Positions 2,830-47,045 of a stretch of DNA of 47,047 nucleotides are shown piece after piece (the first letter of the stretch is position 1; the number at the start of each line of letters is the position of its first letter). The stretch is taken from the sequence record OZ335955.1; one strand, 5' to 3'. The notes under the pieces are model-generated. The model saw only the letters and a program-made list of their open reading frames with translations. It made no database searches and was not told the DNA's origin. The translations under genes were made by a program, and so were the position numbers. This DNA is from a phage.

Positions 2830-4254
<1,425 letters not shown>

Positions 4255-4348
4255 TATAATCATAAATGCAGCTAGTCCGGCCAGACGAAAAGGTGAACGT
4301 AGACACCCTGCTGCATCCTCAATCTACGAACCTACTACGGGGTTACTC

Positions 4349-4990
4349 ATGGCAAAAAGACTCACCACGGAAGAATTCATTTCTCGCGCCAGACAAAAAC
4401 ATGGCGACAAGTGCATTTATCATAAATGTGAATACGTCAACGCAAAAACAAAAATCGTCATAACATGCAAAAAGCACGGCGATTTCACGCAATCACCAAG
4501 TGACCACCTGCAAGGAAAGGGGTGCAAGAGGTGTGCAGATATCTCAGGGTGGGATAAGAGAAAGATAACAACCTCCGAATTTGTCTTGAAGGCAAACGCG
4601 ATACACTCCAACAAGTACACATATGAAAAAGCCAAGTATAAGCAATGTCATTTAAAGGTGTGCATAACATGCAGAAGGCATGGTGATTTTTATCAATCAC
4701 CAAGTAGTCATTTAAGGGGCTTTGGTTGTCCATCGTGCAAGTTTGAATTAAATGCAGAAAGATGCAGAATGACAAAATCAGAGTTCATATCAAGGTCAAA
4801 TGAACTGCATGGTGACTCATATGACTACTCAATGGTGGAGTATAAAAACAATAACACCAAAGTTGCTATATTGTGTAAGGAGCACGGATTGTTCATGATG
4901 TCACCTGGCAATCATCTTGCTGGCACGCAAAGTACGGATTTGATTATAAAAGGGAAGGTTTTGTATATTTCCTCATGGGTGATGGTGTGA
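4349..4990 (+). CDS. homing-endonuclease-like protein, N-terminal part with three tandem ~60-aa Cys/His repeat modules
   Basis: ORF-track 4190..4990, start refined to ATG 4349 after portal stop; three repeats of pattern EFI-R--HGD-Y-Y-----N---KV-I-C--HG-F---P--HL-G-GC; ends GKVLYISSW just before a frame change. Confidence 0.45.
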   Translation: MAKRLTTEEFISRARQKHGDKCIYHKCEYVNAKTKIVITCKKHGDFTQSPSDHLQGKGCKRCADISGWDKRKITTSEFVLKANAIHSNKYTYEKAKYKQCHLKVCITCRRHGDFYQSPSSHLRGFGCPSCKFELNAERCRMTKSEFISRSNELHGDSYDYSMVEYKNNNTKVAILCKEHGLFMMSPGNHLAGTQSTDLIIKGKVLYISSWVMV

Positions 4991-5232
4991 TAAAAGTTGG
5001 CATAACAAATGATATAAGACAAAGGATTGCAAGATTATCAAGGAGGACACCTTTTGAATTTTCCTTGATTGCAAAAATAAAAACAACCGGGGAAGAAGCT
5101 GCGGCGATTGAAAAGTATTATCATAACAAATATGAATCAGCCGGTCTTTATGGTTTTGATGGTGCAACAGAGTGGTTGAAATATTCGACAGAACTTATGA
5201 ATGAGATCATGAATGAAGATACTCCGGTTTAA
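4975..5232 (+). CDS. T5orf172/GIY-YIG-like nuclease domain (C-terminal part of split gene)
   Basis: GVIKVGITNDIRQRIARLSRRTPFEF...KYYHNKYESAG resembles the T5orf172 domain; different frame from 4349..4990, overlapping by 16 nt. Confidence 0.45.
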   Translation: MGDGVIKVGITNDIRQRIARLSRRTPFEFSLIAKIKTTGEEAAAIEKYYHNKYESAGLYGFDGATEWLKYSTELMNEIMNEDTPV

Positions 5233-6163
5233 CGCAAGGCTACCTCAACCGCGCATATCACAGAGCATTACTGATCCGTTGGGCGCTGCAACCCGTCTGT
5301 CAAAGATGGATAAGGTAATAACGCGCAAATATAAGCAACTCAGGACTCGTGCGCTTGAGTTGTTTCGCACCATTCCGCATAGTCAGGTCAACGCAGAATC
5401 AAGCGAACTGTATTTCTATGACTTCAGTAGTGCGCGGGCTGCCACCTTCATGGATGAGTTGCAGGCGCTGATTGACGAGATTCTGCTTGAAGGTGATGAT
5501 TTCGGTCACGGCAGAATGTGGGCTAACGTGTTTATTGGTGATGCGTATCAGACTGGCACGCAGAAGGCTAACTCAGAACTGTCAAGCCTGTCTCCGGTTT
5601 ATACCGAACAAAGGCCGATTGCCGCGATACTCTACAGCGAGCCTTACCTTAATCGCCTGCAACTGGCATACACATCCGGATACTCAGACTGGCGCGGATT
5701 GAGTGATTATTCCCGTCAGCAACTGGCATCTGTCATTATGGAAGGCATTGCCCGGGGTGCTAATCCTCGTGATGTTGAATCTGATATCGTTAAGCGTGTC
5801 GATGTGTCTCACAGCTACGCGAAACAGATAGCGCAGACTGAAATCACCGGAACGCTACGACAGGCTCACAGGAGGGAAGTCATTGAGGCGCGCGAGGAAT
5901 TGGGTATTGAGACTGTGATGCTGTGGCAATCGGCATTAATGCGCACAACGCGCCAGACTCACGCGGCGAGACACGGACGGTTTTATACACCAGAAGAGAT
6001 TGATACGTTCTATAGCGAAGTTGCTAATCGCAGGAATTGTCACTGCGCTCAAACCCCGGCGTTATTAATGGATGGAAAACCAGTCATTCTTGAGTCATCA
6101 CAGGAAAGGCTTGATAAGCAACGCGAGGCGTGGCAATCAGTCAACAAAAAGCCCTCTAAGTGA
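5213..6163 (+). CDS. head morphogenesis protein (Mu F-like / SPP1 gp7 family)
   Basis: QTEITGT...W...RTTRQTHAARHGRFY motif block typical of the family; follows portal; true start may be downstream (about 5306). Confidence 0.75.
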   Translation: MKILRFNARLPQPRISQSITDPLGAATRLSKMDKVITRKYKQLRTRALELFRTIPHSQVNAESSELYFYDFSSARAATFMDELQALIDEILLEGDDFGHGRMWANVFIGDAYQTGTQKANSELSSLSPVYTEQRPIAAILYSEPYLNRLQLAYTSGYSDWRGLSDYSRQQLASVIMEGIARGANPRDVESDIVKRVDVSHSYAKQIAQTEITGTLRQAHRREVIEAREELGIETVMLWQSALMRTTRQTHAARHGRFYTPEEIDTFYSEVANRRNCHCAQTPALLMDGKPVILESSQERLDKQREAWQSVNKKPSK

Positions 6164-10309: not shown

Positions 10310-10798
10310 TTACTTTAATGCTCCGTGATTTTTATGGAAACAATATTTTTCCTCAGCTGCTTTTCTGCATTCTGCAGCCATTGACAAGTTTGAGAATCTG
10401 CCAAGCGCAATCTGCTTTCCGTTCACGGCAATCTTTGCATACCATTTCTTACTCTTGTTATCCCAACTAACTCCGACAACATTACTCGTGTTATCAGATC
10501 GCATAGAAAGATTCTTAGCGTTCTGCTTTCTGCTTACCAATCTGAGATTCTCAATCCTATTATCATCACGAATGTGGTTTATATGATCAATCTCCATCCC
10601 CTCTGGTATCTCACCATTGTGCATTTCCCAAATTATTCTATGCATCAGTCGCACTTTTCCAAAGCAATGAACCTGCATGTACCCATTACCTGCCATGCTT
10701 CCTGCCAGCCTCCCTATTTTCATGTTTCTGTTTGTTTTTATCTTCCAATATAGCAACCCATCACGGTATTCGAACACATCATTCCAATCCATCATCAC
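10310..10798 (-). CDS. HNH homing endonuclease (HNH + AP2-like domain)
   Basis: EIDHINHIRDDNRIENLRLVSRKQN HNH motif followed by VVGVSWDNKSKKWYAKI AP2-like region. Confidence 0.85.
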   Translation of the reverse strand: MMMDWNDVFEYRDGLLYWKIKTNRNMKIGRLAGSMAGNGYMQVHCFGKVRLMHRIIWEMHNGEIPEGMEIDHINHIRDDNRIENLRLVSRKQNAKNLSMRSDNTSNVVGVSWDNKSKKWYAKIAVNGKQIALGRFSNLSMAAECRKAAEEKYCFHKNHGALK

Positions 10799-46526: not shown

Positions 46527-47045
46527 ATGAGGAATCTATATATGCTTACGCAAGCAGAATTAAAACACATCCTTGATTACAATCCTGACACCGGAATTTT
46601 CACATGGAAAAACCCACACAAGCAGGGAAGGGCTAAACCCGGGAAGCCAGCAGGAACAATAAAATTATGCGGTACCGTTGGTAGCAAACGGCCGTATCAC
46701 TATATTCATTTTGGAAGAAAGTGGTATAGATCGCATAGGCTGGCTTGGCTTTACATGACTGGTAGTTGGCCTGAAAAAGAAATAGACCACATAAACAACA
46801 ATACGCTTGATAATCGTTTCGTTAATCTGCGAGAGGCTGACCATCAACAAAATGGTTACAACAAAAAGCTACAGGCAAACAACACGTCAGGGGTTAAGGG
46901 TGTGTATTGGGATAAATCAAAATGCAAGTGGATGGCAAGATTAAATATAAATGGCAGGATGGTTAATCTTGGCAGGTTCGCCAACATTGAAGATGCAGTC
47001 AAAAAGATAATGGAAGAAAGAGAGAAACATCACGGGGAGTTTTAA
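46527..47045 (+). CDS. HNH homing endonuclease (HNH + AP2-like domain)
   Basis: EIDHINNNTLDNRFVNLREADHQQN motif and GVKGVYWDKSKCKWMARL AP2-like region; between putative terS and terL. Confidence 0.85.
   Translation: MRNLYMLTQAELKHILDYNPDTGIFTWKNPHKQGRAKPGKPAGTIKLCGTVGSKRPYHYIHFGRKWYRSHRLAWLYMTGSWPEKEIDHINNNTLDNRFVNLREADHQQNGYNKKLQANNTSGVKGVYWDKSKCKWMARLNINGRMVNLGRFANIEDAVKKIMEEREKHHGEF

Follow-up and report, generated by a model that had tools for sequence, protein, structure and literature searches.

The window analysed here is a sequence of 47,047 nucleotides (nt; record OZ335955.1) from a phage of the Salmonella/E. coli type, in which two overlapping open reading frames (ORFs) lie on the plus strand between the portal gene and the head-morphogenesis gene. 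ORF1 (4349..4990) has 213 codons and a stop, runs from an ATG at 4349 to a TGA at 4988-4990 and reads MAKRLTTEEF...ISSWVMV; the program-made ORF starts at 4190. ORF2 (4975..5232), in the -1 frame, specifies 85 a.a. reading MGDGVIKVGITND...NEDTPV. Its frame is open from ~4879 and specifies HAKYGFDYKREGFVYFL ahead of the ATG at 4975; the overlap of the two frames spans 4879-4990. This layout, a 213-codon gene followed by an ORF at 4975..5232 in another frame, had been described in an earlier examination of the letters (the sequence-only reading) and agrees with our ORFs and the flanking Pfam matches; the end that it gave for the first ORF, ...GKVLYISSW, has to be corrected to ...ISSWVMV. We found no paralogues of either ORF elsewhere in the window by tblastn. 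Very probably, the two ORFs derive from one free-standing homing-endonuclease gene, an orthologue of gp09 of phage Skate from the T5orf172 branch of the GIY-YIG superfamily, and a recent 16-nt deletion has killed it.

ORF1 and the peptide of the ORF2 frame matched consecutive parts of a single profile, phrog_681 'endonuclease' (237-423, E=2e-37, and 429-536, E=5.7e-21, respectively). In Skate, gp09 is a single 900-nt gene annotated as 'endonuclease' and encoding 299 a.a. Its residues 1-192 correspond to 4349-4924 with 93.75% identity and its residues 199-299 to 4927-5229 in the other frame with 98% identity, while residues 193-198 (KGCSGC), which include both invariant cysteines of the third zinc-finger module, are missing from the window. 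The gap maps to the junction 4925..4926 (GGCA/CGCA), where 16 nt (AGGGATGCAGTGGATG) carried by Skate, LPST49, VLCpiS13c and the contig ERR6047881 are absent; no microhomology flanks the junction. Over the region 3800-5700 the window shares 92-93% identity with Skate and LPST49, both Salmonella phages, and 82% with the Klebsiella phage VLCpiS13c; each of the three exceeds the window by 16 nt in the matching stretch and holds, at the same place, an intact 299-a.a. single-ORF orthologue. The last 21 codons of ORF1 are out of frame, and its tail, TQSTDLIIKGKVLYISSWVMV, is the out-of-frame linker plus the first nuclease strand. By these alignments, ORF1 and ORF2 are the halves of one gene. A frameshift-inactivated endonuclease had been one option of the sequence-only reading, and the consecutive profile matches, the intact orthologues and the 16-nt deletion bear it out, although the lesion lies at 4925/4926, ~50 nt upstream of the ~4970-4990 that it had proposed. 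In VLCpiS13c (L003, NC_071157, 2043-2942) RefSeq assigns just the final 354 nt to the 'endonuclease', but all 299 codons of the ORF are intact, and we rejected this phage as a second carrier of a broken allele.

The invariant residues of the nuclease are all encoded in the -1 frame, yet not within one translatable ORF with the complete domain. The sole start codon in that frame, the ATG at 4975, lies 3' of the invariant tyrosine of strand 1, and no Shine-Dalgarno sequence at a useful spacing precedes it; on both counts we rejected ORF2 as an independent nuclease gene. A programmed -1 ribosomal frameshift that fuses ORF1 and ORF2 into an active protein would suit the -1 position of ORF2 and the overlap of the frames. 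However, the overlap contains no X_XXY_YYZ slippery heptamer, the relatives encode the protein in one frame, and a fused product would be without the KGCSGC zinc knuckle in any case; the absence of a heptamer and the single frame in relatives effectively refute this explanation. Because KGCSGC is lost, the methionine of ORF2 comes after the tyrosine, and neither a Shine-Dalgarno sequence nor a slippery site is available, the window is predicted to encode no intact enzyme, and an enzyme in two pieces is not plausible either.

The linker and the T5orf172/MUG113 domain, which has the GIY-YIG fold, occupy 4926..5232 (plus strand, -1 frame). The 102-a.a. ORF2-frame peptide scored above the Pfam cut-offs for MUG113 (39.6 bits against 22.3, E=7.8e-10) and T5orf172 (32.3 bits against 20, E=1.5e-7), and below that for the GIY-YIG model itself (19.9 bits against 22.6). 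The T5orf172-type motif noticed earlier in the second ORF is thus confirmed by a significant profile search. An alignment of 39 full-length homologues defined the family invariants, namely C-x2-H(G)-x-F ... H ... G-x-G-C-x2-C in every N-terminal module, and the tyrosine of G-F-V-Y, K-x-G, an arginine, a glutamate, a histidine and G-F-x-G-x-T-E-W in the C-terminal domain. The AlphaFold model of one orthologue (P0001; mean predicted local distance difference test score, 84) consists of three helix/beta-hairpin/helix modules followed by a beta-beta-alpha-beta-alpha-beta-alpha domain, a predicted GIY-YIG fold with a three-stranded sheet and flanking helices. The nuclease domain is joined to the DNA-binding domain in the orthologues, whereas in the window the two are split by the frameshift. 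Sequence searches of PDB chains and NCBIfam gave no matches. A protein search returned more than 1800 homologues, some of which have zinc arrays fused to Vsr-like nuclease domains; P0035, P0058, P0267 and P0278, from metagenomic and bacterial sources, are examples of many DUF723/DUF4379 arrays with a Vsr-like domain (PF04480) or with no recognised nuclease domain. The DNA-binding array appears to have been shuffled between nuclease types.

The three zinc-finger modules lie on the plus strand at 4358..4546, 4568..4753 and 4775..4925. Each is ~65 a.a. long; they are pairwise 46-50% identical, share 16 invariant positions (F, HG, Y, Y, K, I, C, HG, F, SP, HL, G) and matched one another in a tblastn self-comparison with E=2e-30. 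Modules 1 and 2 have the metal-ligand pattern C-x2-H ... C-x2-C, and module 2 is complete in the homologue alignment, whereas module 3 is cut short and has lost its C-x2-C knuckle (KGCSGC) to the deletion. Three repeats of ~60 a.a. had been reported from the sequence, together with repeats at the DNA level. The former stand as protein modules; the latter are weak, amounting to one 43-nt stretch of modules 1 and 2 with 81% identity and nothing comparable for module 3. Tandem Repeats Finder reported nothing, and a tandem DNA repeat was accordingly rejected. The profile phrog_4605 covers all three modules (E=2.5e-31). DUF4379 scored 15.1 bits on ORF1 against a cut-off of 24.5, and in Skate gp09 both DUF4379 (E=5e-4) and DUF723 (E=0.022) were below threshold; PF05265 and PF14311 are present in the precomputed Pfam matches of nearly all homologues. 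At 4412-4414 the window has a cysteine in place of the family-invariant Tyr22 of module 1 (Y22C), a change private to the window, and codon 62 of Skate gp09 has an arginine in place of the last zinc-ligand cysteine of the same module (CKRR vs CKRC). The two changes point to slight erosion even of 'intact' alleles. The linker of modules 2 and 3 contains a 10-nt imperfect tandem direct repeat at 4750-4772 (ATGCAGAAAG/ATGCAGAATG), and the protein fragment P0137 reads as if this 10-nt unit had been duplicated, with a frameshift as the result, as far as its protein sequence tells.

The gene belongs to an inserted cassette of ~1 kb (4203..5211, plus strand), which consists of a replacement portal tail with its stop, a 94-nt leader and the endonuclease gene. 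Aligned with five natural empty-site alleles (KFSST1, Segz_1 and the metagenomic contigs L018-L020), the window shows homology only at 4150-4202 and 5212-5260, and 1009 nt are inserted in exchange for ~22 nt (AGACACACCTCCGGAAGATGAA) of the empty allele, whose junction is conserved (...GAAGACACNCCNCCGGAAGAYGAAAATGAAGATACTCCGGTTTAACGC). The portal gene (2833..4254, plus strand; Phage_portal_3, E=2e-21) can be aligned with that of Skate, and its last ~17 codons (4203..4254), the new tail and stop, are part of the cassette. The original portal 3' end and stop survive at 5212..5232 on the same strand as AATGAAGATACTCCGGTTTAA, which encodes NEDTPV and a stop: the former last six codons and stop of the portal gene now form the C-terminus and stop of the endonuclease. 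Within this stretch, the ATG at 5213 of the Mu F-like head-morphogenesis gene (5213..6163, plus strand; Phage_Mu_F, E=6.5e-11) is preserved. The cassette sits at the end of an essential gene, and neither neighbour is damaged. The leader, from the portal stop to the endonuclease start (4255..4348, plus strand), is common to different endonuclease alleles; it has no promoter-like site and no unusual RNA structure (fold z-score 0.17), and we rejected both a promoter of its own and a structured RNA there.

We compared the occupancy of this site among relatives. In the five natural empty-site relatives the portal gene directly precedes the head-morphogenesis gene, and INT59, LPSTLL and SB28 have an equally short spacing and an empty site; a search with head-morphogenesis neighbours contributed only three of these empty sites, those of the metagenomic contigs. 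Skate, LPST49 and VLCpiS13c are occupied, and a human-gut contig as well as several Salmonella and E. coli assemblies also carry intact copies. In PHA46_2, Seszw_1, VSt472, BS5 and NX263, the same site is filled by a second T5orf172 allele of the same architecture with 43% protein identity. The PHA46_2-type allele (L004, 2050-2955) and the window gene have the replaced portal tail, the leader and the first ~144 nt in common, and this shared 5' part suggests that one allele has replaced another by recombination inside the cassette. The Salmonella phage vB_Se_STGO-35-1 (L017, 2501-3500) carries the same ~95-nt leader, which thus moves with the gene to another site, and behind it a third allele (300 a.a., three-module T5orf172, 36% identical) after the head-morphogenesis gene; therefore, the cassette occurs at different intergenic sites in related phages. 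CRISPR-engineered seszw mutants without the gene at the portal/head-morphogenesis site are viable (PMC9825161), which supports the view that the endonuclease is dispensable. The homing-endonuclease-like label of the sequence-only reading fits this sporadic distribution, with the insertion lacking in some relatives, replaced by another allele in others and displaced in a further one. Taken together, the empty sites, the rival alleles and the intact and many broken copies form what, from these sequence comparisons, looks like the classic pattern of gain, decay and loss of a homing endonuclease.

Free-standing GIY-YIG homing endonucleases such as the T4 Seg proteins and I-TevI are well established, and the mechanism proposed here is drawn from them and from the T5orf172 literature. 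In the intact 299-a.a. form, the three zinc-finger modules, of the CapR/DUF723/DUF4379 type, would read the DNA and the C-terminal GIY-YIG-fold domain would cut it. The site bound by the modules would be long and asymmetric and probably corresponds to the conserved empty junction, and the C-terminal domain would cleave nearby. In a mixed infection, the enzyme would thus cut phages without the gene at the end of the portal gene and the start of the head-morphogenesis gene, and repair of the break by recombination with the co-infecting carrier would bring in a copy of the ~1-kb cassette. The carrier itself would be immune, because the cassette replaces ~22 nt of the target sequence. Cleavage of double-stranded DNA by a T5orf172 domain has been shown for Odn of ICP1, a distant T5orf172 protein (PMC8263062). 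In the window, the frameshift has cut ORF1, the DNA-binding part, off from the nuclease and ORF2 lacks the first catalytic strand; the gene would be dead and, as we infer from its sequence, can no longer cut, home or be copied.

At least six other independently broken alleles were found in public assemblies, with one 1-nt deletion, three nonsense codons and two frameshifts. ERR6047881 (Logan, L006) has the 1-nt deletion in codon 181; two ENA contigs that retain the 16 nt have GGA>TGA at codon 202 and TAC>TAA at codon 201; protein fragments end at C198* and Y201*; and the frameshifts lie near codons 138 and 94. In ERR6047881 (L006, 3680-3700), the N-terminal and C-terminal ORFs overlap at the stop of the former and the start of the latter (TCATGATG), and the C-terminal ORF keeps the whole nuclease domain. 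C-terminal fragments of 117 a.a., of two diverged sequence types, occur on ~32 contigs; P0126, P0129, P0130 and P0131 match the C-terminal ORF of ERR6047881. A further protein search with ORF1 gave no more clusters of high-identity fragments. Because each two-ORF assembly has a different lesion, the split is not a conserved two-gene arrangement, and the two-part option of the sequence-only reading falls with it.

Codons 181-202 (window ~4889-4940), where the DNA-binding array borders on the nuclease, contain five of the seven mapped lesions: the 16-nt deletion, the 1-nt deletion, C198*, Y201* and G202*, the last three being nonsense codons within five codons (L006, L007, L008, P0135, P0139). 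The sampling of lesions was biased towards these codons, and the clustering is a hint only. It would nevertheless be expected if the nuclease-free ORF1 were kept as a site-specific DNA-binding protein, with the split selected rather than a product of decay; such a remnant might act as a CapR-like repressor or regulator of the portal/head-morphogenesis junction, or might protect the target site from related homing endonucleases. A T5orf172-type DNA-binding domain has been domesticated before, in CapR (PMC10448857), and the 117-a.a. fragments on ~32 contigs also speak for a retained split. However, apart from the biased ascertainment, module 3 of the window lacks both knuckle cysteines, module 1 lacks the invariant tyrosine, and the lesions differ, with no single split form conserved. 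We consider a functional remnant improbable, both in general and in either of these roles.

We also asked how old the deletion is. Between the repaired window gene and Skate, the ratio of nonsynonymous to synonymous substitution rates (dN/dS) was 0.11 overall and 0.05 in the nuclease part, and the changes private to the window comprise nine synonymous and five nonsynonymous ones, Y22C among the latter. Because of these values, the gene seems to have been under purifying selection until recently, and the dN/dS suggests that the deletion is recent. The nuclease-frame peptide of the window is identical to the matching part of the 117-a.a. P0126, which keeps KGCSGC. A conserved 34-mer retrieved one intact allele from metagenomes and none from GTDB genomes.

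Several points weigh against a recently inactivated homing endonuclease. IMG/VR contained no copy of the exact junction, and a collection of 15 billion proteins no copy of the window ORF1; the deletion allele is without independent confirmation and, because neither sequence occurs in the databases searched, is either very young or an artefact. Known solely from assembled sequence, the deletion could have arisen in assembly or sequencing. The loss of function is likewise read from the sequence, and ORF1 could still bind DNA. Finally, homing has not been experimentally verified for any T5orf172 gene (PMC10448857). If the gap came from assembly or consensus calling, the phage would carry an intact 299-a.a. 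gene, and the identity with the KGCSGC-bearing P0126 fragment, the junction and ORF1 found nowhere else, and the scarcity of decay besides the deletion (dN/dS 0.11) would all be explained. Against this, a clean loss of 16 nt in non-repetitive, non-homopolymer sequence is an atypical platform error, the gene is often truly broken in other assemblies by different lesions, and the altered Tyr22 fits relaxed constraint. The sequencing error that had been considered earlier is thus less favoured than inactivation; with the allele unconfirmed, we keep it as an unlikely explanation, slightly ahead of the functional remnant.

Elsewhere in the window, two other homing-endonuclease-like ORFs of a different family, with an HNH_3 domain followed by an AP2 DNA-binding domain, lie at 10310-10798 (minus strand; HNH_3, E=2e-23) and 46527-47045 (plus strand; HNH_3, E=4.8e-15). 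The structural/tail half (12000-36000) is closest not to Skate but to the Escherichia phages HC6/6947 and the Salmonella phages ST1UNAM and IME207 (~90% identity, 75-77% coverage). The genome is a mosaic, and it is absent from the August 2025 phage collection.

In annotation, 4349..5232 calls for a single entry, a disrupted endonuclease gene (pseudogene), in place of two hypothetical proteins. One small phage group displays invasion into the portal end, replacement by rival alleles, decay and loss, the textbook life cycle of a homing endonuclease. The conserved ~45-nt sequence of the empty site is a concrete candidate target, with which a first experimental test of T5orf172 homing would be possible, because the intact donor (Skate) and the empty recipients (KFSST1, Segz_1) are isolated phages.

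We finally compared the window gene with known systems. Closest are Skate gp09 (YP_010053292.1, 'endonuclease'/'GIY-YIG nuclease family protein') and its counterparts in LPST49 and VLCpiS13c, which share the locus, the leader and the three-module plus T5orf172 architecture with 87-94% nucleotide identity; the loss of 16 nt (codons 193-198) and the frameshift set the window apart from their intact 299-a.a. ORFs. The T4 Seg proteins and I-TevI carry the nuclease N-terminally and bind DNA with a zinc finger plus a helix-turn-helix, whereas the present family has a C-terminal nuclease and binds DNA through a triple C-H-C-C zinc array. Barth, Dunham and Seed (2023, PMC10448857) described T5orf172 homing-endonuclease genes with repeated CapR/DUF723/DUF4379 zinc-finger domains, at least one of which is present in 87% of 229 such genes; these genes adjoin essential genes, vary between close isolates and are often frameshifted. 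The T5orf172 genes of ICP1 and other phages in that study have the same C-terminal T5orf172 domain, N-terminal zinc repeats and frequent frameshifts as here, but the present gene belongs to another phage lineage and another insertion site, inside the portal 3' end, where it reuses the last six codons and stop. Odn/Gp88 of ICP1 also cuts DNA with a T5orf172 domain, but its DNA-binding domain is of the RepA_N type (Barth et al. 2021, PMC8263062). CapR of the Vibrio cholerae PLE satellites, a nuclease-less zinc-finger protein derived from T5orf172 genes (Netter et al. 2021, PMC8096241), resembles ORF1 in content; CapR, however, is conserved and works as a repressor, whereas ORF1 has only recently been truncated and its third module is damaged. 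The window gene is not a working member of the family, because the joined architecture and the complete catalytic domain were looked for and are absent. It represents a new and broken version of a gene that had already been annotated, in a known family whose architecture and frequent frameshifts have been described, and its 16-nt knockout is an ordinary stage in the life of selfish mobile nuclease genes that will not surprise specialists.

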